Sequence record: GU595417
Strand: one strand, 5' to 3'
DNA: 43,984 nucleotides
DNA from: Escherichia phage UAB_Phi78
The position numbers and the translations under genes are program-made. Every line of letters starts with the position of its first letter. Within the stretch, counting starts at the first letter, position 1. This document shows positions 2,602 through 43,869 of this stretch, piece by piece. The notes beneath the pieces were generated by a model. It did not search any database. It saw only the letters and a program-made list of their open reading frames with translations, and was not told the origin of the DNA.

Positions 2602-3477
2602 ATGACTACTGAAAACACTGTTGTATCCGTCCGTGAAGCTGCAACTGCTGAAATCAAGGTACACTTAGATACAATTGGCACCGCCTATCTGAAAGTTGGT
2701 TCCCTCTTGAATGAACTACGCGGTGACTTTGAGAATCAACGTGACTTTCTGTCTTATGTAGAAGCTGAATTCAGCATTAAGAAGGCACAATGCTATAACC
2801 TGATGAACGTAGCGCGTTGCTTTGACGGTGACGAGCGTTTCAAAGGCGTTGCCATGCGTGTCATGCTCGCCCTTATCCCGTTCGCTGATGATGGCGCAAT
2901 CATGGATAAGGCCGCCGGACTTGCCGCTAACGGCGAACTAGACACCAAGGCCGTGAATGCACTTGTATCGCCGTCTAAGCCTGTGAAGGCTGAAGCCAGC
3001 CAATCACAAGCCGAAGACACAAAAGCCGCTGAGAAGGCCGCTCCTGTAGAATCTGAGGCATTACAAAGCGTGCCGCATGAGGTAGCACCGGAAGGCGACG
3101 AATCCGCACCGTGGGAGGATGCGCCAGCGACTACCGAGGCCGCAGCGCCTAAGCTAGATAATGCTGAGAACACCGAGAACGCGGCTATGGCTAGCCTGCT
3201 GGCGCAAATCAAGACGCTGACCGAGCAACTGACCGCAGCAAACGACCGCATCGCAGAACTGACCAGCACACGCGAGACCAAGAAGGCAGCCGCGCCTATG
3301 TTGCCTCAATTCAAATCTAAGTGCTTCTATGCTCGCTTAGGTCTGAGCGCGGAGGAGGCGGAGAAGAAAACAGCAGTTAATAAGGCTAAACGTGAACTTG
3401 TTAAGCTTGGATACGGAGAAGGTCATGAAGCTTGGGATCTGATTCAAGAGGCTGTTACCACACTTACTGAGAAATAA
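2602..3477 (+). CDS. hypothetical early protein (291 aa) with low-complexity Ala/Glu/Lys-rich centre
   Basis: Long ORF with AGGTAAG RBS-like sequence. The antisense ORF 2793..3281 is explained by its biased composition. Confidence 0.65.
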   Translation: MTTENTVVSVREAATAEIKVHLDTIGTAYLKVGSLLNELRGDFENQRDFLSYVEAEFSIKKAQCYNLMNVARCFDGDERFKGVAMRVMLALIPFADDGAIMDKAAGLAANGELDTKAVNALVSPSKPVKAEASQSQAEDTKAAEKAAPVESEALQSVPHEVAPEGDESAPWEDAPATTEAAAPKLDNAENTENAAMASLLAQIKTLTEQLTAANDRIAELTSTRETKKAAAPMLPQFKSKCFYARLGLSAEEAEKKTAVNKAKRELVKLGYGEGHEAWDLIQEAVTTLTEK

Positions 3478-6252: not shown

Positions 6253-6268
6253 GTCTAACGTGTTGGAC
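6253..6268 (+). repeat. 16-bp near-palindromic element
   Basis: gtctaacgtgttggac, 10 bp upstream of a promoter-like sequence. Confidence 0.7.
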
Positions 6269-6277
6269 ACGATGCGG

Positions 6278-6298
6278 ATTTAAGGGACACTCTAGGAC
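6278..6298 (+). promoter_or_regulatory. degenerate SP6-type promoter-like sequence
   Basis: atttaagggacactctaggac against the consensus atttaggtgacactatagaag. Confidence 0.35.
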
Positions 6299-6423
6299 TA
6301 ACCGTCGGAGACGGAAAGTAATAGGTAGTAATAGGAAGTAGTAGGTAAGTAAGGTAACTATAGGTTACTTAGGTTACTTCTTCCTATTACCTCCTTCTTA
6401 ATAGGGAGGGCAGACACTAGGTT

Positions 6424-6439
6424 GTCTAACGTGTTGGAC
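6424..6439 (+). repeat. 16-bp near-palindromic element
   Basis: gtctaacgtgttggac, 8 bp upstream of the promoter at 6447. Confidence 0.7.
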
Positions 6440-6446
6440 AGAACCT

Positions 6447-6467
6447 ATTTACGTGACACTATTGAAC
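6447..6467 (+). promoter_or_regulatory. SP6-type phage promoter (variant)
   Basis: atttacgtgacactattgaac; close to consensus, upstream of the HNH and primase genes. Confidence 0.55.
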
Positions 6468-6492: not shown

Positions 6493-6903
6493 ATGCGTAA
6501 ATCATTAGCTCAAATGGTAGAGCAAGCAGGTTATACTATACATGCAGACGGTACTATCACAGGTAAGCGCGGAAATATCTTGAAGCCTTGGCTTCAGACT
6601 TCCGGCTATCAGGTTGTGAACATTGTGTTCAAGAAGGGAACAAGAACCACAACACTTGTGCATCGTATTATCGCAAGTAAATACTGCCCATGCTCAGATC
6701 AACTAGCTAATGATGTAAACCACAAGGACGGAGACAAGACCAATAACGTCTCCTCTAATCTGGAATGGATTACACGCAGACAGAACCGCAACCACTACCT
6801 TGGGTTTGAAGATTACATGACACTTACGGCAAACGATGCCCGTAGAAAGAACAATGAGCGTACTATCGCTCGTCGTAAATTACTTAAACAACTTAATAAG
6901 TGA
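6493..6903 (+). CDS. HNH homing endonuclease
   Basis: AAGGAGGT RBS; HNH-family motif VNHKDGDKTNN...NLEWIT; free-standing between the RNAP and primase genes. Confidence 0.8.
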   Translation: MRKSLAQMVEQAGYTIHADGTITGKRGNILKPWLQTSGYQVVNIVFKKGTRTTTLVHRIIASKYCPCSDQLANDVNHKDGDKTNNVSSNLEWITRRQNRNHYLGFEDYMTLTANDARRKNNERTIARRKLLKQLNK

Positions 6904-9020: not shown

Positions 9021-9121
9021 ATGGATGAACTAGGCTTTTGGTTGTTCATGGTTGTATGTATCGTTATGATTAACCTAGACAAACTTGCCATGCTAATTAA
9101 GTAGTGTCCTTATCAGGGCTT

Positions 9122-9137
9122 GTCCAACATGTTGGAC
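9122..9137. repeat. 16-bp element, perfect-palindrome variant
   Basis: gtccaacatgttggac is its own reverse complement. Confidence 0.7.
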
Positions 9138-9176
9138 AGGCTCTTATTAAGCACATTAACTAACTGGAGATTAACT

Positions 9177-9869: not shown

Positions 9870-10062
9870 CAGCAAGCACAGCCTGAAGTTCCTTGAGCAG
9901 CATGAAGACCTTGCAGCAAAGGTAACTAACCAAGCATTCCTGTTTGCACAACTCACACTGGCTGAAGCTAAGAAGAACAGCCTTACTCGTGAACAGATTA
10001 TTAAGGAAGGTTGCCGTGGTGCAACTCGTCGTATTAAGAACCACAGAAGTGGTGCTCGCTAG
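9856..10062 (+). CDS. hypothetical protein (68 aa)
   Basis: ATG 9856 with GGAGGAA RBS; start overlaps the end of the upstream gene. Confidence 0.5.
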   Translation: MSRNDSKHSLKFLEQHEDLAAKVTNQAFLFAQLTLAEAKKNSLTREQIIKEGCRGATRRIKNHRSGAR

Positions 10063-10079
10063 TTAATAAGTCGTGGCTT

Positions 10080-10095
10080 GTCTAACATGTTGGAC
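10080..10095 (+). repeat. 16-bp near-palindromic element
   Basis: gtctaacatgttggac. Confidence 0.7.
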
Positions 10096-10220
10096 AGGTC
10101 ACTATCATATTAATTGGAGGAATTACTGTATGATTAATTACGATTCTGATTGGGATTACGAAGATTCATTACAGCCTGAACCGGAGACACCAGACTACAA
10201 GTTTGAAACGGAGGCAATGT

Positions 10221-10439: not shown

Positions 10440-12972
10440 TTGGAAGAGGGAGGCGGAAGGTCGTATCCTAGTGATGGATGCGGAAGCTAAAGGTCTGCTT
10501 GATGCTATCCGCTACGGGCATCGTGAAGATGTGCATATCATTTGCTGCATGGACTTGCTTACTACCGAGGAGTTCCTCTTCTTTGACCCATATGAGATGC
10601 GTGACCCTGAAGCAAGAGAACGCCTGAAAGAGTGGGAAGGCCATCAAGATGGTGACTTGGTTGATGGTGTTAACTTCCTGAAGTACTGTGAAGCTATCGT
10701 GTCACAGAACTTCTTAGGATATGACGGCCTGCTCTTTGAGAAAGCATTCCCTAATATCTGGAAAGGCTTTAACTACACAGAGAAGCGCGGCAAGGGCAGG
10801 CTCCGTGCCGACCTGTGTCCTGTGCGGGTCATGGACACACTGGTGATGAGCCGCCTGTTAAACCCCGATAGACGCCTCCCTCCGCAAGCATACGCCAAAG
10901 GTATGGGTAACGTCGCCCCTCACTCTATTGAGGCGCATGGTATCCGTATCGGTCGCTATAAGCCTGAGAACGAGGACTGGTCTAAGCTGACAGACCACAT
11001 GGTTCATCGTGTACGTGAGGACGTGGCGATCGGTCGTGACCTGTTCCTGTGGCTATATAATGGCGAGTGGATGGAGCACAAGCGGCGTGGTGTCAATCCA
11101 CGGACTGGCCTTGGCATTGAGACGGCCTTTCACATGGAGTCTATTGTAGCACTGGAGATGTCCCGTCAAGCGGAGCGTGGCTTCCGGTTGGATATAGACA
11201 AGGCACTGGCACGATGCCAGGAACTTGACCAGAAGATCGACGAGACGGTTGCAGCATTCCGACCTCACATGCCAATGCGTATCAAGTCTAAACCCTTCAA
11301 ACCTCAAGAGAAGCAGGAGCAGGTAGATGCAGCAAACTCATTTAGTTTACAGAATCAGATTGGTGTTACGCTTGGAGCCGATGCTTTCATTCATGCCGAG
11401 CGGCGCTCCGATAGGAAGACTGTATGGTCAGTCACTACTAAGTCAGGTGATTGGTCGGCTACTGTCAAGAAAGACTTCCCTCACATCCGAGGAAACATCA
11501 ATGATACTCCGAGCATTAAACACATCGGGCCATATACACCTGTCACCTTCGAAGATATCCCGCTTGGCAACCGAGATACCGTTAAGCAGGTTCTGTATGA
11601 CTTTGGGTGGCGGGGTGTTGAGTTCAACGACACTGAACAATCTTATCTGGACGAGCATGGAGTGTTGCCTAAACCTTGGAGTGGAAAGATAAATGAGAAG
11701 TCCCTTACTTTATGGCAGGAAAGGGCTGCACGTGAAGGTAAGTCAGTCCCTGATTGGTGCTTGGGTATCGCTGCATGGTACATACTCGTTTCCCGTCGTG
11801 GTCAGATCCTCAACCGTGGTGATGTTGAAACCTTCGATGCAACGGGGCGTTGGCCCTCGCAAGCTGGTGTACGAAAGTGTCGCGGCCTTATACCTGTAGC
11901 CTTTAATAAGGAGCTAGGTATCAATGCACAGACGTACTACGAAACGTATGGCTACTGGCCTACGTCCGATAAGGATGACGGAGAGTGGCGTGTTCCCGCT
12001 GTTGCTATTTCTATTGGCACTTCTACGTTCCGTATGCGTCACAGGAATGTGGTTAACATCCCCGCTCGTGGCCTTTACCCTCTTCGTGATTTATTCATAG
12101 CTGGTAAAGGTAAGATGATTCTTGGTTGTGACGGTGCAGGTCTGGAGTTGCGTGTACTCTCGCACTTCATGAACGACCCTGAGTACCAAGAGATCGTCCT
12201 GCATGGTGACATTCATACACATAACCAGCTCAAGGCTGGCCTGCCTAAGCGTGATATGGCGAAGACCTTTATCTACGCATTCCTGTATGGCTCAGGTATT
12301 GCCAACCTCGCTGCGGTATGTGGCGTAACTGAAGATGAGATGAAGGAAGTTGTTGCACGCTTTGAGATAGAGCTACCTTCATTGGCAAGACTTCGTGAGA
12401 ATGTTATTGCGGCAGGTAATCGATATGGATACCTCCAGGCACCTGACGGTCATTGGGGCCGCATCCGTATGAGCGGTGGTGTACTTAAAGAGCACACCAT
12501 GCTTAACGTATTACTCCAGATGACAGGCTCATTGTGCATGAAGTATGCATTGGTTAAGGCCTTTGCAGTCATGCGCCGTGAAGGTGTGGCACTAGATGAC
12601 ATGGGAAATCCGTGTGGCGTGGCTAACGTACACGATGAAATCCAGATGGAAGTACCAGAAGAGGAGGTGTTGTACCTTGACTATGAATTGCCTTTCACGC
12701 TGGAAGGTTTCGAAAATGAGAAGCAAGCCATCAAAGCTGTGTTCGACCCTGAAGAGAAACGTGTGCATGTGGACTCAGAGGGTCGTATGTGGTCTGCTGC
12801 TAACTTGGTTGAAGTTGATGCTGCTGCTGGTGTGCTGCGTTGTCAGCGTCGCTACCACAGGGCTGGTCATATTATCGCTGACGCCATGACTTGGGCTGGC
12901 AAGTATCTTAACATGCGCTGCCCTATGGCTGGCGAATATAAAATAGGTGCAAGTTGGAAGGAGACACACTAA
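10426..12972 (+). CDS. DNA polymerase (family A, T7 gp5-like)
   Basis: Pol I motif B KTFIYAFLYG, motif C VHDE, and an N-terminal exonuclease-like region. ATG 10426 with GGAG RBS is preferred over the track start at 10393. Confidence 0.93.
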   Translation: MKSIDWKREAEGRILVMDAEAKGLLDAIRYGHREDVHIICCMDLLTTEEFLFFDPYEMRDPEARERLKEWEGHQDGDLVDGVNFLKYCEAIVSQNFLGYDGLLFEKAFPNIWKGFNYTEKRGKGRLRADLCPVRVMDTLVMSRLLNPDRRLPPQAYAKGMGNVAPHSIEAHGIRIGRYKPENEDWSKLTDHMVHRVREDVAIGRDLFLWLYNGEWMEHKRRGVNPRTGLGIETAFHMESIVALEMSRQAERGFRLDIDKALARCQELDQKIDETVAAFRPHMPMRIKSKPFKPQEKQEQVDAANSFSLQNQIGVTLGADAFIHAERRSDRKTVWSVTTKSGDWSATVKKDFPHIRGNINDTPSIKHIGPYTPVTFEDIPLGNRDTVKQVLYDFGWRGVEFNDTEQSYLDEHGVLPKPWSGKINEKSLTLWQERAAREGKSVPDWCLGIAAWYILVSRRGQILNRGDVETFDATGRWPSQAGVRKCRGLIPVAFNKELGINAQTYYETYGYWPTSDKDDGEWRVPAVAISIGTSTFRMRHRNVVNIPARGLYPLRDLFIAGKGKMILGCDGAGLELRVLSHFMNDPEYQEIVLHGDIHTHNQLKAGLPKRDMAKTFIYAFLYGSGIANLAAVCGVTEDEMKEVVARFEIELPSLARLRENVIAAGNRYGYLQAPDGHWGRIRMSGGVLKEHTMLNVLLQMTGSLCMKYALVKAFAVMRREGVALDDMGNPCGVANVHDEIQMEVPEEEVLYLDYELPFTLEGFENEKQAIKAVFDPEEKRVHVDSEGRMWSAANLVEVDAAAGVLRCQRRYHRAGHIIADAMTWAGKYLNMRCPMAGEYKIGASWKETH

Positions 12973-13070: not shown

Positions 13071-13099
13071 GTTAGATTCACCTAAATTCTTCTTACTTG

Positions 13100-13120
13100 A
13101 TTTAGGTGACACTATAGAAG
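13100..13120 (+). promoter_or_regulatory. SP6-type phage promoter (consensus)
   Basis: Exact atttaggtgacactatagaag. Confidence 0.9.
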
Positions 13121-13184
13121 GACAGCCAAGGTAATCTAGGTTATTAAGGCAGTATAGGTAATTAGGTAATATAGGAGAATAAAT

Positions 13185-13562
13185 ATGTCTATGGTAACTA
13201 TCCTTGTAGCAATGTCTCAGTACCTGCGTAGCCTGTCTGTTCGTATGAAGAACAAGGCTATCAAGGCAATTAAAGATCGCATCGCTGTAGTTGAGGCGGA
13301 GCAGGTAGAGTTAGAAGAGAGCCGAAGCAATCGCATGGTTGATTGCCACAAGCGATACTATGCATCTTATGAAGACCTTCGTGCTCGATACGTCAAAGAG
13401 GTGGCTGAGTTACTGGAGCGTCATGAGACGGAGCAGCGTAATCTGAAGGCAGACTTTGAAGAGAACAAGCGCACTATTGCACTTACCTCTCAGGCTGCAT
13501 CTAATGAACTGAAGCGTGAACTTGTAATGCTTAGTTCTGAACTGGATAACCTAACCAAGTAA
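13185..13562 (+). CDS. hypothetical protein (125 aa), coiled-coil-like
   Basis: TAGGAGAATAA RBS; charged heptad-like sequence. Confidence 0.6.
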   Translation: MSMVTILVAMSQYLRSLSVRMKNKAIKAIKDRIAVVEAEQVELEESRSNRMVDCHKRYYASYEDLRARYVKEVAELLERHETEQRNLKADFEENKRTIALTSQAASNELKRELVMLSSELDNLTK

Positions 13563-28505: not shown

Positions 28506-31442
28506 ATGGCAATTGAACGTCAAGCTGTACAGGGCTTACGCCGAGTGCAGTCTACTGGTGGGCCAAGTGCTGCTAGTTTTGCGACTCGTCAGGTTGGGGT
28601 GCAAGAGACTAGTGCATCTGGTAGCCGCTTTCTTGAAGACCTTGTAAATGCTGCTGGCAGTTTGGCGACTGTCACTACTTCTATCCTGAACCAAAGGGTG
28701 GAAGATGATAAGGTACGACAATACAACCGGGCGTTAACTGGCCTGATGCCAACTGAAGATGCAACGGTTGGTGGCGCTCGCGCACACATGCTTGTCAGCT
28801 TACAAAATGACATCATCGCGCAAACCATGCAACTGTCCGATGATGCACAGCGTTTTGATGGTGATGACAGCCAATGGGAAGATCACGTTATCAACGCACG
28901 CATGGCTGTTCAAGACCGCCTGTGGGATACCTACCCTGAACTGCGTGGAGATAAGGAGTCCATGCGGGTAGTAACTAACGCCTTCATGGAGCAGCAACCT
29001 AAGATCTTTGCAGCAAGAGAGACTGCCAAGTTGAAGCAGGAAGCTGAATCTCGTATCAAGTCTATGGAATCTCGCATTCTGTTGGCTACACGTGATGTTC
29101 CTGGAGAAGCTATGGGTGATGCCTTGAATCAGTTGCAGAAAGAAGCTATGGCTATGCAAATCACCAAGCAGGAGTTTGATGCGCTGGTTTCTCAGTTGGC
29201 ATCTAATCGTGCAGCTATTGGTGATGATTCTATGATTCAAGGAACCAAGGCTCTCAAGGATGAGAATGGAGTGTCACTTTATGACCGAGTAGGTCAGTTG
29301 CAGACAGGTGAGATTCAGGCCAACCGAACATGGGCGGCGCAGAACCAAGTGGCGCTCTTTGAGAAGAAGGATGCTGCAATCAAAGCCTTTGAGGCTGGAC
29401 AGCTTAACCGTGAGCAGCTACTTCAGGTTATGCAGAACCATAATGAAATCTCAGGGGGCACTGCTTGGTCTGATAGCGAGATCAAATCTTTATTTGATAG
29501 GCAAGCTAAGGTTCGTGCTGAGTCTGCCAAACTAGAAGACTTGGTGGCCCGTGGTGAACATGGCTCTCCTTTAGGCTTGCAAGACATCAGCAAGGAAGAC
29601 CGCAAGGCGTATGCTGGTGCATTGGTTGATGCCTACACCAAGTTGGCCAATGACGAGATAACTCGTACCGGAGCTACTGGTGAAGAAGCTGAGGCCATCC
29701 GTGGACGCTATGAGCAGATGCGATACGCCAAGCTGGGGCAGCAGTTGATTGAAGACCCCATCATCAAAGAACGATATGGCTCGCTAATGCAACTATCTTC
29801 TGCCAACCTGAAAGATATGAAGGTTGAACCTGAAGCATTACAGACTATTATGCGAGCACGTGATTCTATCCCGGAAGATGCACGCCGGGCGGTGATGGGT
29901 GACAAGGAGTATGCCTTTGCGGAGAACTATGACTTGGCTACACGCATGGGTTATACGCCGGGGCAGGCCATAGAGTTTGCACAGAATGCATCGCGTGGCG
30001 ATAAGCTTCCCGGTTCTGTTATGAAAGAATTGAATGATGAAGTCGATGGTGTAGTTAGCGATGTGGCTAGTGGTAGCTGGCTTACGCGTGGCGACAACAT
30101 GAGCGACATGGGACGTGATCTTATGTTAGAAGAGGCAAACCAGATTGCCCGCTCTATGAAGGTTGCAGGTCATAACAATGACACCATTAAGCGACATCTT
30201 AAATCTTTCCTACAGAATCAGTACACTCAACTATCTGAAGGTTTCTTCACTCAAGGTGTTCTGGTCAAAGGTGATGTGAGAACGCTAGGTGACACTATAG
30301 GCACCAACCAAGGAGACGTACCTACGGTATTACGTCAGTACCTTGACAACCATAAGCAAGCCTTGCTGGATGCATCTGGCGGTATGGAAGAAGGAGACTT
30401 GTACTTTGATGTAGACTCTAAGCGCGGTATGTTTACAATACGTGCTGGTTCTGGTCGTGTACCAGTTACTCCAGCTATGCCTTTGTCTGAAATCAAAGGA
30501 CAGGACTTACTGAAGGAGCACTACGAGAAGGCAGTGAAAGAGCGCGATGAGGCTAAGAAGAACTTTGAAGCTAATCAGATGCGTATGTGGGGTGCTGGCG
30601 GGTATCAAGCTCCTGCACCAGAAAAGACTACAGCTAAGACTGTAGGTTCCCGTGGTATCGCTGACTTCCTCATGTCACCAGCCTTTGCATCAGGTGAGAA
30701 TCTACCTTCCAACTTTGAATTCAACTACAAGAGGAATAACATGGACTTCTACAATTATGTAGCTAAGACCGAGAACGGGGCCAACGTAGGGTTCGACCGA
30801 GTAGCTGGTGTATACACTCCGTACAAAGATGCACACGGTCAATCTGTGGGCTACGGTCACTTCCTCACGGAGGAGGAGAAGAAGAATGGATACATCACTA
30901 TTGGCGAAGATAAAGTACCATTTGCACCGGGACAATCTCAGTTAACACCTGAGCGTGCAATGCGCCTGCTTGAGCAGGACATGAAGAGTCACGTACCTAG
31001 CACAAAGGATTGGGCTGTACCTTTTGATGCAATGCATCCGGGAGTGCAACGTGGCCTCATGGACTTGTCTTATAACTTAGGCAAGGCTGGCATCAAGAAT
31101 GCGCCAAAGGCTTATGCAGCATTCAAGGCTGGCAAGTTCACTGATGGGTTTATCGAGATGCTGTCTACTGCATCTACTGAAGGTAAGCGCAGTTCAGGTC
31201 TGCTAGTTCGCAGGGCAGAAGCCTATAACCTTGCACAAAGCGGAGGTGCTGTTCCTAAGATTAGCGAAGTGGAGACGAGGGAAGATGGCTCCATGTACGT
31301 TAGGTTCTCAGGTAACATGTCAGAAGCATTTGTGAGCAAGTCTATCCTTGGCAAGATAGGCAAAGATGGGTGGATGGAAGTCTACCAGCCTAAAGCAGGA
31401 GCACTTGCAAGCGGCACCAAAGTGGGTCGCATTAAACTGTAG
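28506..31442 (+). CDS. internal virion protein with C-terminal lysozyme-like domain
   Basis: 978 aa; YKDAHGQSVGYGHFLT matches the T4-lysozyme-family pattern YKD..G....G.GH.LT. Confidence 0.8.
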   Translation: MAIERQAVQGLRRVQSTGGPSAASFATRQVGVQETSASGSRFLEDLVNAAGSLATVTTSILNQRVEDDKVRQYNRALTGLMPTEDATVGGARAHMLVSLQNDIIAQTMQLSDDAQRFDGDDSQWEDHVINARMAVQDRLWDTYPELRGDKESMRVVTNAFMEQQPKIFAARETAKLKQEAESRIKSMESRILLATRDVPGEAMGDALNQLQKEAMAMQITKQEFDALVSQLASNRAAIGDDSMIQGTKALKDENGVSLYDRVGQLQTGEIQANRTWAAQNQVALFEKKDAAIKAFEAGQLNREQLLQVMQNHNEISGGTAWSDSEIKSLFDRQAKVRAESAKLEDLVARGEHGSPLGLQDISKEDRKAYAGALVDAYTKLANDEITRTGATGEEAEAIRGRYEQMRYAKLGQQLIEDPIIKERYGSLMQLSSANLKDMKVEPEALQTIMRARDSIPEDARRAVMGDKEYAFAENYDLATRMGYTPGQAIEFAQNASRGDKLPGSVMKELNDEVDGVVSDVASGSWLTRGDNMSDMGRDLMLEEANQIARSMKVAGHNNDTIKRHLKSFLQNQYTQLSEGFFTQGVLVKGDVRTLGDTIGTNQGDVPTVLRQYLDNHKQALLDASGGMEEGDLYFDVDSKRGMFTIRAGSGRVPVTPAMPLSEIKGQDLLKEHYEKAVKERDEAKKNFEANQMRMWGAGGYQAPAPEKTTAKTVGSRGIADFLMSPAFASGENLPSNFEFNYKRNNMDFYNYVAKTENGANVGFDRVAGVYTPYKDAHGQSVGYGHFLTEEEKKNGYITIGEDKVPFAPGQSQLTPERAMRLLEQDMKSHVPSTKDWAVPFDAMHPGVQRGLMDLSYNLGKAGIKNAPKAYAAFKAGKFTDGFIEMLSTASTEGKRSSGLLVRRAEAYNLAQSGGAVPKISEVETREDGSMYVRFSGNMSEAFVSKSILGKIGKDGWMEVYQPKAGALASGTKVGRIKL
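30282..30303 (+). promoter_or_regulatory. internal SP6-type promoter-like sequence inside the internal virion protein gene
   Basis: acgctaggtgacactataggc matches the consensus core TAGGTGACACTATAG exactly, with a divergent upstream end. Confidence 0.5.
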
Positions 31443-31458
31443 TGTCATACTCAAGGTT

Positions 31459-31474
31459 GTCTAACACGTTGGAC
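31459..31474 (+). repeat. 16-bp near-palindromic element
   Basis: gtctaacacgttggac in the 66-bp gap between the two large internal virion protein genes. Confidence 0.7.
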
Positions 31475-31508
31475 AGCCTTTATGAATGACATTAACTAAG
31501 GAGGTAAC

Positions 31509-36483: not shown

Positions 36484-36769
36484 CAAACACGCCGCTACGG
36501 AAGATGAGGTAGGTAAGCTACATAGTGCTATCACCAATCTTTTCAACAAGAAAGCTGCTGCAATCCTCGCTGCGGTAGAGGAAGACCCTGATGCAGCAAT
36601 TGCGCTGGTGTCAGGTAAGGACATGGGTGCCATGTGTAAGTGGGTGCTAGATAATGGCATTACGGCTACACCTGCTGCACAGCAGGAAGAGTCTGCACTG
36701 TCTAAGCGCCTTGCTAAGATCAAAGCAGCATCTCAAGGTAAAGTAATCCAATTTGCTAAGGAGGCTTAA
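36470..36769 (+). CDS. terminase small subunit (candidate)
   Basis: GTG 36470, 7 nt after AAGGAG; about 100 aa; lies immediately upstream of and coupled to the large terminase, as for T7 gp18. The track ORF begins upstream at 36392. Confidence 0.5.
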   Translation: MASHNKHAATEDEVGKLHSAITNLFNKKAAAILAAVEEDPDAAIALVSGKDMGAMCKWVLDNGITATPAAQQEESALSKRLAKIKAASQGKVIQFAKEA

Positions 36770-38667
36770 TGGCTAGAGCAAGGGAGTCACAAGCTGAAGC
36801 CCTTGCCCGTTGGGAAGCCCTGCATGAGTTACAGCAAACTTTTCCGTACACTGTAGCAGGGTTACTCTCATTTGCTCAGGTTGTAATTAATACTTTAATC
36901 ACTGGCAACCCAGACCTGAACCGGGTACAAGCGGATATTCTGAAATTCCTCTTTGGAGGGAACAAATACCGGATGGTAGAGGCACAGCGTGGTCAGGCTA
37001 AGACAACCATTGCAGCTATCTACGCTGCGTTCCGTATCATCCACGAGCCACATAAACGTATCATGATTGTGTCTCAGACAGCGAAGCGAGCAGAAGAAAT
37101 CGCCGGGTGGGTTATCAAAATATTCCGTGGTCTGGACTTCTTGGAGTTCATGTTGCCTGATATCTACGCAGGTGACAAGGCTAGTATAAAAGGCTTTGAA
37201 ATCCACTACACATTGCGTGGTAGCGACAAGTCTCCATCCGTTGCTTGCTACTCTATTGAAGCAGGTATGCAGGGTGCGCGTGCAGATATCATCTTGGCGG
37301 ATGACGTAGAGTCGTTGCAGAACTCTCGTACTGCCGCAGGTCGTGCTCTCTTAGAAGACCTTACCAAGGAATTTGAATCAATCAACCAGTTCGGTGATAT
37401 CATCTACTTGGGGACACCTCAAAGCGTAAACTCCATATACAACAACCTCCCGGCACGTGGTTATCAGATTCGCATCTGGCCCGGTCGCTATCCTACACTA
37501 GAGCAGGAGGCTTGCTATGGAGACTTCCTAGCGCCGATGATTCGTCAGGATATGATTGATGACCCAAGCCTACGCTCCGGCTACGGCATCGACGGTACAC
37601 AAGGCGCACCGACCTGTCCTGAAATGTACGATGACGAGAAGCTCATTGAGAAGGAAATCTCTCAGGGTACAGCTAAGTTCCAGTTGCAGTTCATGCTGAA
37701 CACACGTTTGATGGATGCCGACCGCTATCCTCTTCGTCTTAATCAGCTTATCTTGATGAGCTTTGGTACTGACGTAGTGCCGGAGATGCCGACTTGGAGT
37801 AACGACTCGGTAAACCTTATCAGCGACGCGCCGCGCTTCGGGAACAAGCCCACAGACTACCTGTATCGGCCTGTGCCGCGTCCGTATGAGTGGCGGCCTA
37901 TTCAGCGTCGGCTGATGTATATCGACCCGGCAGGTGGCGGTAAGAACGGCGACGAGACGGGCGTAGCCATTGTGTTCCTGCTGGGAACCTTTATCTACGT
38001 CTACAAAGTCTTCGGCGTACCGGGCGGATACTCCGAATCGGCCCTCAGTCGCATTGTGAGAGAGGCAAAGCAGGCGGAGGTAAAAGAGGTCTTCATAGAG
38101 AAGAACTTCGGTCATGGTGCGTTTGAGGCGGTAATTAAGCCATACTTCGAACGTGAGTGGCCTGCCGAGTTGAAAGAAGATTACGCCACTGGTCAGAAAG
38201 AGGCCCGCATCATTGAGACGCTGGAGCCGCTTATGTCCGCACACCGCATCATCTTCAATGCCGAGATGATCAAGCAGGATGTCGATAGCGTCCAGCACTA
38301 CCCTCTTGAGATTCGCATGAGCTACAGCCTGTTTGCTCAGATGTCGAACATAACCCTTGAGAAAGGATGCCTGCGGCACGATGACCGCTTAGACGCGCTG
38401 TATGGCGCTATACGGCAATTAACCTCTCAGATAGACTATGACGAGGCTAACCGGATAAATCGTCTCAGGGCGAAGGAGATGCGCGAATATCTGGAGATGA
38501 TGACCGACCCTCTACGTCGCCGGGAGTTCTTCACAGGACAAGACCACGGTTATCGAAAACAAGTGAACACGTCAGTGGCAATGCAGCGCCGAGTCTACGG
38601 AAATGCGCCGACGATGAGAATCAAGTCTCGAAATACTCTTTCTTCAAGAATATCAAGGACTTGGTAA
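36769..38667 (+). CDS. terminase large subunit
   Basis: 632 aa; AAGGAGG RBS; size and position equivalent to T7 gp19. The 269-aa antisense ORF inside it is discounted. Confidence 0.9.
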   Translation: MARARESQAEALARWEALHELQQTFPYTVAGLLSFAQVVINTLITGNPDLNRVQADILKFLFGGNKYRMVEAQRGQAKTTIAAIYAAFRIIHEPHKRIMIVSQTAKRAEEIAGWVIKIFRGLDFLEFMLPDIYAGDKASIKGFEIHYTLRGSDKSPSVACYSIEAGMQGARADIILADDVESLQNSRTAAGRALLEDLTKEFESINQFGDIIYLGTPQSVNSIYNNLPARGYQIRIWPGRYPTLEQEACYGDFLAPMIRQDMIDDPSLRSGYGIDGTQGAPTCPEMYDDEKLIEKEISQGTAKFQLQFMLNTRLMDADRYPLRLNQLILMSFGTDVVPEMPTWSNDSVNLISDAPRFGNKPTDYLYRPVPRPYEWRPIQRRLMYIDPAGGGKNGDETGVAIVFLLGTFIYVYKVFGVPGGYSESALSRIVREAKQAEVKEVFIEKNFGHGAFEAVIKPYFEREWPAELKEDYATGQKEARIIETLEPLMSAHRIIFNAEMIKQDVDSVQHYPLEIRMSYSLFAQMSNITLEKGCLRHDDRLDALYGAIRQLTSQIDYDEANRINRLRAKEMREYLEMMTDPLRRREFFTGQDHGYRKQVNTSVAMQRRVYGNAPTMRIKSRNTLSSRISRTW

Positions 38668-38686
38668 TTAGGGGACACTATAGGAG
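38666..38686 (+). promoter_or_regulatory. SP6-type phage promoter (variant)
   Basis: aattaggggacactataggag, directly after the terminase stop. Confidence 0.75.
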
Positions 38687-38757
38687 GAGGCCCAGAGAAT
38701 AAGAGAAATAACAAGGATAATATAGGTTAACCTAGGTTATATAGGTTACTATAGTAT

Positions 38758-38777
38758 GGGTGTACTCCTGTACACCC
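38758..38777 (+). other. perfect leader hairpin
   Basis: gggtgtac-tcct-gtacaccc: 8-bp perfect stem in the 5' leader downstream of the promoter at 38666. Confidence 0.6.
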
Positions 38778-38819
38778 TATTCCTTACTTCCTTACTATAC
38801 TTACATAATAGGAGAGAGA

Positions 38820-39095
38820 ATGTCTAATAGCTATAGTACACAACCTCTTACAGGTAAGTCTGCTCGTAAGCAGGTACAACCTGTGAGTGAAGCACTAATG
38901 CTTCCTGTAATCTCAAAAGAGGAGGCTAGTAAGAAAAGCAATGTTATTAATGATGCCACCAAATCAGGCAAACAGAAAGGAGCCATGGTGTGTCTTGACT
39001 CATCTGGTGCATTAAGTATTGCTATTGCAGTTGATGACAAAGAAGATTCTAATTGGCTGTCCGTTACAGCGGGCACTTCTATTACCCCAGCTTAA
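38820..39095 (+). CDS. hypothetical small protein, paralogue A (about 92 aa)
   Basis: ATG 38820 with AGGAGAGAGAA RBS; shares SGKQKGAM......G....IAIA with the next gene. Confidence 0.6.
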   Translation: MSNSYSTQPLTGKSARKQVQPVSEALMLPVISKEEASKKSNVINDATKSGKQKGAMVCLDSSGALSIAIAVDDKEDSNWLSVTAGTSITPA

Positions 39096-43672: not shown

Positions 43673-43816
43673 ATGCCCTTAGTGAAGTCTATCAAGGAGA
43701 AGGCTGTACTCCAGAACACAGAAGAGCTAATCAAGTCCGGTCGTGACCCTAAGCAGGCTTATGCCATTGCTAAGGATGTACAGCGACGTGCCTTGAAGAA
43801 GCCTTCTGCATCTTAG
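43673..43816 (+). CDS. hypothetical small basic protein (47 aa)
   Basis: In-frame ATG 43673 after GAGG; the track ORF starts upstream inside the tailspike gene. Confidence 0.4.
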   Translation: MPLVKSIKEKAVLQNTEELIKSGRDPKQAYAIAKDVQRRALKKPSAS

Positions 43817-43869
43817 TGTAACCAAAGGGCTGGCCTAGGTTGGCCCTTAGTGTAATCAAAGGAGATAAC

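Follow-up and report, generated by a model that had tools for sequence, protein, structure and literature searches.

Bacteriophage T7 places RNase III sites next to its promoters. These sites (R1.1, R1.3, R6.5 and others) are intergenic RNA elements with a purine-rich 5' strand that contains AAGGU, a pyrimidine-rich 3' strand and a GC upper hairpin with UAU or UAG on its 3' side; in R1.1 the purine-rich strand starts at +1 and pairs with the pyrimidine-rich 3' strand around the GC upper hairpin and the UAU. The 5'-terminal stem-loop stabilizers of the T7 phi10 leader and of the Escherichia coli ompA 5' untranslated region combine a stable hairpin with an unstructured spacer of about 40 nucleotides (nt) and a ribosome-binding site. 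The natural leaders that lie downstream of SP6-type promoters have barely been described, even though these promoters and their polymerases are standard tools, and our literature search found no transcriptome paper for the SP6-like phage group. Here we analyze one such leader, at positions 38683-38822 of Escherichia phage UAB_Phi78 (GU595417), whose 43,984-nt sequence is referred to below as the window. It shares with the RNase III sites of T7, a member of a related phage group, the promoter-proximal intergenic location, the order of purine-rich strand, GC hairpin and pyrimidine-rich strand, AAGGU in the first of these and UAU or UAG after the hairpin, and it shares with the stem-loop stabilizers the succession of hairpin, spacer and ribosome-binding site. 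By analogy, the leader functionally resembles the promoter-proximal RNA elements of T7 (R1.1, the phi10 5' stem-loop) and yet appears to be a distinct variant. With moderate confidence, we read 38683-38822 as the 5' untranslated leader of a gp41-like message transcribed from the promoter at 38668, and as a conserved cis-acting RNA module devoted to mRNA protection or processing and to setting up translation.

The window is the near-complete genome of an SP6-like podophage of the UAB78/pSL2 type, and the 1-kb stretch around the leader's repeat array and hairpin shares 99.3% identity with Salmonella phage vB_SenAt-pSL2 (Zindervirus UAB78). A consensus search located 13 SP6-type promoters in the window, all of them on the + strand, against 0.06 expected. 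The leader, on the same strand, is flanked upstream by the large terminase gene (36769-38667) and downstream by a small gp41-like gene (38820-39095) that has homologues in all relatives. Its promoter, TTAGGGGACACTATAGGAG (38668-38686, +), matches the consensus TTAGGNGACACTATAGRAG with 0 mismatches and has its +1 at the G in 38683. The transcript opens with a purine-rich segment, GGAGGAGGCCCAGAGAAUAAGAGAAAUAACAAGG (38683-38716, +), which is the strongest Shine-Dalgarno-like stretch of the leader and the predicted partner of the downstream pyrimidine tract. There follow a UAGGU decamer array (38720-38757, +), composed of three TAGGTTA units plus an inverted TAACCTA and predicted to form a local hairpin of 7+5 bp; a GC-rich 8-bp hairpin, GGGUGUAC-UCCU-GUACACCC (38758-38777, +); and a pyrimidine-rich tract (38778-38806, +; 76% pyrimidine) with (U)UCCUUAC direct repeats, within which TTCCTTAC recurs and which is the predicted 3' partner of the purine-rich 5' end. 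The leader closes with the Shine-Dalgarno sequence UAGGAGAGAGA and the ATG (38820) of the gp41-like gene (38806-38822, +).

The same succession of elements recurs among relatives. We assembled 22 distinct terminase-gp41 leaders, drawn partly from metagenomes (IMG/VR contigs) and partly from phages of Salmonella, Escherichia, Klebsiella and Citrobacter, a set that includes SP6, K1-5, K1E, Klebsiella phage IME184 and Citrobacter phage CrRp3. All 22 leaders share a layout consisting of a promoter, a purine-rich start (GAAGGAGGCC...), three to six UAGGU (sometimes UAGGA) units, in most cases GCCUUAGU, then a GC hairpin, a pyrimidine tract and, ahead of the ATG, UAGGAG or AAGGAG; the pyrimidine tract is found 3' of the hairpin in every relative. 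Neither the tract nor this conservation had been noted in the first-pass annotation. As judged from this comparison of sequences, the leader module is real, conserved and promoter-proximal in SP6-like phages.

Evidence for a role at the RNA level comes from the GC hairpin. The first-pass annotation of this sequence had described both TAGGTTA repeats and a perfect 8-bp hairpin at 38758-38777, and direct reading confirms the two of them: the hairpin, GGGTGTAC-TCCT-GTACACCC in the DNA, consists of 8 perfect pairs with a predicted energy of -13.1 kcal/mol. Relatives carry five stem types in this same place, 38-46 nt 5' of the ATG in most lineages: GGGUGUAC/GUACACCC, as in the window; GGGAGGUA/UACCUCCC; GG(GA)GGGUAC/GUACCC(GA)CC, with a tandem G-A mismatch; GGGUACUCU/AGAGUACCC; and GAGGGUAC/GUACCCUC. 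All five fall between -12 and -13.5 kcal/mol, and a sixth type, GUAUCCUC/GAGGAUAC, is present in a further viral contig (L052). Since MAFFT, used together with RNAalifold on whole leaders, misaligned the hairpins, these were compared instead in a gap-free alignment of the 20-nt hairpins, with the register held by artificial flanking anchor sequences. In this alignment, changes on both sides of the stem (i.e. compensatory) affect 6 of the 8 pairs and 87.5% of the cells are paired, values reached by none of 500 shuffles; the unpaired cells are mainly G-A mismatches. Sliding the 3' strand by one to three columns as a register control lowers the paired fraction to 25-57%. Because of these compensatory changes in 6 of 8 pairs, the comparative evidence indicates that the GC hairpin is an RNA structure kept by selection for pairing. 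Most relatives also carry one GCCTTAGT immediately 5' of the hairpin.

A stable hairpin under selection is what would be expected of a 5' stem-loop stabilizer of mRNA. Unlike the phi10 and ompA stem-loops, however, the leader hairpin does not lie close to the 5' end, but starts 75 nt after +1 (38683 to 38758); closeness to the end would arise solely after a candidate processing cut, which would turn the hairpin into a cap, or else the 5' end might be protected by pairing with the pyrimidine tract. The hairpin could also be taken for a partial terminator or attenuator that halts some polymerases, thereby restricting read-through out of the terminase operon and adjusting the expression of right-end genes. 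Like Rho-independent (class I) terminators, it joins a GC-rich hairpin to a U/C-rich tail; it satisfies a lenient terminator pattern, the stem being followed by 8 bases of which 5 are T; the homologous hairpin is annotated as a putative terminator in one GenBank record (KAW1A4500); and the tail is more U-rich in some lineages (UUUAUUCUUUUCUUU). Nonetheless, the U tract is weak and interrupted (UAUUCCUU, compared with UUCUUUUGUUU in the tail of the capsid-gene terminator), and the hairpin is placed just after its own promoter, so that an attenuator 75 nt downstream would also halt the transcripts of that promoter. The fixed distance to the start codon, in turn, suggests a role in the message, and we regard attenuation as improbable.

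The second conserved component of the leader is the array. TAGGTTA occurs on the + strand at 38723-38729, 38733-38739 and 38742-38748, and the inverted TAACCTA, missed by the first-pass annotation, occupies 38728-38734, overlapping units 1 and 2. Owing to this inverted unit the array at 38720-38757 is able to fold: UAACCUA can pair with unit 3 (UAGGUUA, 38742-38748), giving a predicted fold of -9.1 kcal/mol for 38717-38757. Over the whole window TAGGTTA is found 18 times, against 5.0 expected, a count that none of 100 shuffles reaches, and WAGGTWAY is found 36 times, against 10.0 expected. There are exactly three clusters of at least three TAGGT within 32 nt (6342-6370, 13137-13163 and 38723-38742), all on the + strand and all just 3' of phage promoters (6280, 13102 and 38668, respectively), and there are none on the - strand of the window; shuffled genomes hold 0.023 such clusters on average, with one present in 7 of 300 shuffles. 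The repeats that had been pointed out near 6355-6380 and 13125-13170 are hence real and of the same class, and enrichment over the background, the absence of which the first-pass annotation had taken as a counter-indication, is evident.

Among the 22 relatives, 119 units define the logo UAUAGGU(A/U)A, with a spacing sharply peaked at 9-10 nt, and the arrays behind the RNA polymerase and DNA polymerase genes show an identical logo and spacing. Arrays occupy all three syntenic positions in SP6, K1-5, KAW1A4500 and many more contigs, and at least the terminase-gp41 position in IME184. In 16 divergent leaders neither the AGG core nor a CCUAGG element changes, whereas the spacers do. The UAGG-N4-CCUA arrangement within the terminase-gp41 array is likewise invariant in 16 of 16 sequences, and this invariance neither supports nor refutes pairing; the UAGGU units are predicted to lie partly in local helices (UAGG/CCUA) and partly in single strands. 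The repeats might conceivably be functionless, i.e. low-complexity sequence generated by slippage in an AT-rich untranslated region of which only the hairpin and the promoter are functional. Such an origin would be in keeping with the variation in copy number (3-6) and with the (TA)n and (GA)n microsatellites of the same leaders, but it accounts poorly for an invariant AGG core and CCUAGG amid variable spacers, for arrays at syntenic positions across lineages and for clustering far beyond that of shuffles, and we deem it distinctly improbable.

The first-pass annotation had offered two kinds of explanation for the repeats: as fragments of the promoter that would bind, decoy or pause the phage RNA polymerase, or as elements of RNA stability or processing. 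TAGGT is indeed part of the promoter of this genome (TTAGGTGACACTATAG), and TATAG also recurs in the array. Yet phages with at least four other types of promoter, none of them containing TAGGT, retain the arrays. The promoters of K1-5 and K1E read TTACTGGACACTATAG, and their arrays keep the AGGU core at the same three positions; the same holds for the lineages L043/L206, L039/L203 and L046/L187, the promoters of which read TAATAGTGGCGAGTATAG, TTAAAGACCACTATAG and TTGTGTTGCACTATAG. The specificity-region sequences of such promoters comprise ACTGG, GTGGCG, AAGACC and GTGTTG. The arrays thus remain unchanged where the promoters lack TAGGT, and the motif does not co-vary with the polymerase and is therefore independent of its specificity. 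This leaves hardly any room for the decoy or pause proposal, to which we assign a very low probability, whereas the stability or processing option fits the compensatory hairpin, the fixed start-codon distance and the sense-strand orientation of the arrays.

The two sister elements of the leader follow the polymerase genes. Sister element 1 (6295-6450, +) is a leader situated between two promoters 3' of the RNA polymerase gene, in which TAGGTTACT occurs twice (6361-6378) within a longer array of AGG units (6318-6378). At its 5' side is the hairpin CCGUCGGAGACGG; at 6328-6390, the AGG-unit array joins with a pyrimidine arm in an imperfect hairpin of 26 bp, in which AGGUAAC-type units of the 5' arm pair with AGGUUAC-type units and CUUCCUAUUAC in the 3' arm; the window copy folds with z = -3.7, and 4 of its 26 pairs are G-U. 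Each lineage displays a hairpin of 20-30 bp at this position, with a lineage-specific stem sequence, and the small 5' hairpin CCGUC-GGA-GACGG varies compensatorily (CCAUC/GAUGG, CCCUC/GAGGG). In the window copy, as in 7 of 8 relatives, folding is better for the sense than for the antisense strand, and in most of them the sense strand also has more G-U pairs, which argues for RNA rather than a DNA cruciform; these folding predictions make a strong case for RNA structure in sister element 1. Sister element 2 (13117-13187, +) is a leader 3' of the DNA polymerase gene with five AGG units 8-10 nt apart, including TAGGTTAT/TAGGTAAT units at 13128-13170. Its array keeps the same period as far as the true Shine-Dalgarno sequence, into which it passes without a break, an arrangement kept in 11 relatives. 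A perfect 10-bp inverted repeat, TCACCTAAAT ... ATTTAGGTGA, lies upstream of this element, at 13078-13109; the upstream half of promoter 13102 forms its 3' arm, and read-through RNA could fold this promoter sequence into a hairpin. Directly after the second promoter behind the RNA polymerase gene there is an HNH endonuclease open reading frame (ORF; 6493-6903, +; Pfam HNH_3, PHROG 959), at a position where SP6 has only the small gp9, and this frame is probably a mobile insertion at a module boundary.

The location of the three arrays raises the alternative of a DNA element for replication origins, in which polymerase transcripts would, as in T7, prime DNA synthesis and the purine- and AT-rich array would favor an RNA-DNA hybrid or strand opening. 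The three positions mirror those of the origin-associated promoters of T7: the tandem pair after the RNA polymerase gene corresponds to phi1.1A and phi1.1B, and the promoter after the terminase gene corresponds to phiOR. Sister element 1 occupies the position of the T7 primary origin (phi1.1A/phi1.1B and an AT-rich region) and shares with it a promoter, an AT-rich stretch and a short repeat, the T7 phi1.1B leader also having a repeated motif (CTTAAG/CTTTAAG). The array DNA at the terminase-gp41 position is 68% AT, compared with 53% genome-wide, and the transcript 38683-38757 is 67% purine. According to PMC4837284, moreover, the SP6 origin was located by Dobbins et al. close to the DNA polymerase gene, which counts in favor. 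A promoter and an AT-rich region at an origin-associated position, as found here, are necessary for a T7-type origin but far from sufficient. Against it, the compensatory changes and sense-strand G-U pairs point to RNA structure, the motif differs from that of T7, and the strict conservation of AGG exceeds what AT-richness would call for. The GC skew shows no switch; since it is positive throughout the genome, it is uninformative as an origin marker. The recognition site of the SP6 primase, reportedly 5'-GCA-3', is absent from the array. We thus consider an origin function unlikely.

In the mechanism that we favor for the leader, the purine-rich 5' end (GGAGGAGG...) would pair with the ..CUUCCUU.. 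tract, generating a domain closed around the array hairpin and the GC hairpin. This domain would conceal the 5' end and its strong Shine-Dalgarno-like sequence, and would shield the message from 5'-end-dependent decay. Alternatively, or in addition, a cut just 5' of the GC hairpin might leave it as a protective terminal cap. By either route, the real ribosome-binding site would stand at the end of an unstructured pyrimidine-rich spacer. The predicted minimum free energy structure of the window leader has nt 2-8 paired with CUUCCUU, and the prediction is recurrent: the opening 8-10 nt (GGAGGAGG or GAAGGAGG) are paired with the pyrimidine tract, thereby enclosing both hairpins. In the window, nt 1-10 pair with the tract with a probability of 0.68; in 10 of 16 relatives this probability is at least 0.5. 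We infer that the module operates at the RNA level, where it would protect the message or serve its processing and would provide the context of the ribosome-binding site.

How closely this module approaches the RNase III sites of T7 was assessed with a covariance model. T7 sequence folded at the coordinates reportedly assigned to its RNase III sites reproduced the known hairpins, and for the model six T7 sites were combined with three canonical ones found in SP6-group genomes. It scores 31440-31493 (+) at 59.9 bits, a site that belongs to the training set and is near-perfect in its match to the T7 consensus; this canonical site, UAGUGUCAUACUCAAGGUUGUCUAACACGUUGGACAGCCUUUAUGAAUGACAUU, lies between two large internal-virion-protein genes, and its consensus is nearly identical to T7 R1.1 and R0.5. 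Other canonical T7-type sites are found in SP6, at 12233 and 30560, and in K1-5, at 12518. The model also yields weak full-length candidates at 2534, 9102 and 10060, the first of which (2534-2579, +; 17.7 bits, E ~0.07) stands just 5' of an ORF (2602-3477) and may be an early-region processing site.

The leader hairpin itself was rejected as a canonical T7-type site, the consensus of which runs through lower stem, CUCAAGGUC, upper stem-loop, GGCCUUUAUGAU and lower stem, since the covariance model does not score its region. Unlike the T7 sites, the leader has no adjacent lower stem and carries a UAGGU array of 40-70 nt between the 5' strand and the hairpin. T7-type sites have some two helical turns of stacked duplex with an internal loop in between; the duplexes of the leader are of 8 bp in the hairpin, or 12 bp if AGUA/UAUU is included, and of 14 bp in the predicted closing helix, which is set apart by the array branch, and sister element 1 reaches 26 bp. 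T7 R1.3 has GCCUUAGU in common with the K1-5-type leader, and R1.1 is located between phi1.1A and phi1.1B after the polymerase gene, like sister element 1. The leader may still be processed, but its membership in the canonical RNase III family is unsupported.

Several observations weigh against the reading of the leader as a protective RNA domain. The covariance model reports nothing in 38600-38900, with E up to 10 and filters off. The folding energy of the whole leader is unexceptional (z = -0.84 in the window and from -4.1 to +0.7 in 16 relatives), and sister element 2 is essentially unstructured (z = +0.2). The closing helix has no covariation support, because the promoter fixes its 5' strand. 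The number of units varies from three to six without a matching change in the pyrimidine tract. Finally, the leader is, at the nucleotide level, 82-97% identical to Vectrevirus, compared with 43-62% identity for the 3' end of the terminase gene, possibly as a result of mosaic exchange and not of constraint; in view of this mosaic profile, its conservation is not readable as purifying selection alone. The last ~150 nt of the terminase gene (38490-38640), compared with relatives L009-L014, reveal a sharp mosaic boundary at the promoter.

Because the array after the DNA polymerase gene is unstructured and the copy number changes freely, folding alone does not explain the conservation of the UAGGU core. 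It is possible, if rather doubtful, that the UAGGU array with its period of 9-10 nt represents a distinct class of phage cis-element, placed behind the same three promoters across the SP6-like phages: a multivalent platform for a putative factor that would read single-stranded RNA, or DNA, independently of RNase III and of the hairpin. A scan of viral contigs for TAGGT-N3-6-TAGGT-N3-6-TAGGT returned mostly coding repeats among the matches listed, with L052, L102 and L075 as informative loci. The array design appears in two of these contigs (L052:1580-1725 and L102:5160-5275) with other promoters and other downstream genes. In L052, the array is followed by CCUAGUAGU, the new hairpin mentioned above and then AUUCCUAUU, ahead of an unrelated gene, and in L102 nine CUAGGU units lead into AAGGAGACAUG.

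The L102 arrangement also bears on the notion that the array is a landing or standby platform for ribosomes, in which the AGG units, as weak Shine-Dalgarno-like sequences, would keep 30S subunits in the vicinity of the start, or ribosomes bound to them would protect the RNA. STAB-SD and standby sites are likewise non-initiating Shine-Dalgarno-like sequences in 5' leaders, comparable here to GGAGGAGG and the AGG units. AGG(U/A) is a Shine-Dalgarno core, and the context of the units (AUAGGUU) approaches that of the real site (AUAGGAG); the units run periodically into the true Shine-Dalgarno in sister element 2 and in the metagenomic phage L102; the array of the former is, as seen, unstructured; and the 5' end GGAGGAGG (at 38683) forms an anti-Shine-Dalgarno duplex of -12.1 kcal/mol. 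Unlike the described standby examples, however, the units have a period of 9-10 nt and bind weakly: each UAGGU contributes -3.1 kcal/mol, compared with -7.3 kcal/mol for the true Shine-Dalgarno, and thus falls short of the complementarity of a functional site. In a tally that took in AGG followed by U or A only, G seldom precedes AGG (6-7% in arrays 1 and 3), the usual base there being U, so that the extended forms GAGG or GGAG are rare. Epsilon-like pairing with 16S rRNA was likewise rejected, as the tested units and pyrimidine repeats find no complement of 6 to 9 nt in E. coli rrsH, and the terminase-gp41 array is kept from the Shine-Dalgarno by the hairpin and a 40-nt tract. On balance, a standby function seems rather unlikely.

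Other candidates for the leader were set aside. A search of the whole window against Rfam gave no match at the gathering threshold, and the best sub-threshold match, preQ1-II (22.9 bits against a threshold of 47, E = 0.11), was taken as chance. A CsrA-type GGA sponge and an Hfq (ARN)n site, both judged by eye, were discarded, the array cores being mostly GGU and not GGA, and the ARN runs not being conserved. An upstream ORF of 23 codons, from the AUG at 38756, at the foot of the hairpin, to the UAA at 38827 (+), overlaps the gp41 start, stopping 5 nt past its ATG, and is probably non-functional; it was rejected because its frame is not conserved among relatives, the AUG being in frame with gp41 in K1-5 and missing in SP6, and the length of (GA)n varying. 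This (GA)n microsatellite, at 38812-38819 between the Shine-Dalgarno and the gp41-like ATG, is also present in L002, L013 and L018; it ranges among relatives from GAGAGA to ten GA repeats (K1E) and alters the spacing from Shine-Dalgarno to start. The (TA)n runs inside the arrays also vary in length (K1-5, L019).

Further observations concern the annotation of relatives and other repeats of the genome. The record of Escherichia phage SHAK7704 (OR594181.1; L171) assigns it to Kayfunavirus, gives it an 'M' morphotype name and labels the region ocr-like; this stretch actually carries an SP6-group terminase-gp41 leader and a gp41 homologue, and hence both annotation and taxonomy look unreliable. 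The window contains nine copies of a 16-nt palindrome, GTCYAACRYGTTRGAC, against 0 expected (521, 4964, 6253, 6424, 7640, 9122, 10080, 14688 and 31459). Those at 6253, 6424 and 14688 lie 25-35 nt 5' of phage promoters, three make up the upper stem of RNase III-site-like hairpins (9102-9157, 10060-10115 and 31440-31493) and two fall within genes, those for the RNA polymerase and the primase/helicase. In the K1-5 group, GTCTCACATGTGAGAC takes the place of this palindrome. Near the left end (240-400), CCTTAGT is repeated four times (303-378), with 18 copies genome-wide against 5.7 expected, and copies of CTTAGTG are seen near the right end (43800-43860), resembling the short-repeat arrays beside the terminal repeats of T7. 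ATCTGTT, the T7 class II pause signal, occurs at ~190.

For the SP6-like phages, the analysis corrects the annotation of a hairpin labelled as a terminator in at least one relative, and it supplies three arrays as landmarks of module boundaries for the study of mosaic exchange among phages that are candidates for therapy. With its covarying hairpin and its periodic array, the conserved leader also offers testable parts with which to control the stability and translation of the RNAs made by fast single-subunit polymerases. More generally, if the protective reading is correct, the leader would illustrate the solution of the SP6 group to a problem that T7 handles with RNase III sites and 5' stem-loops.

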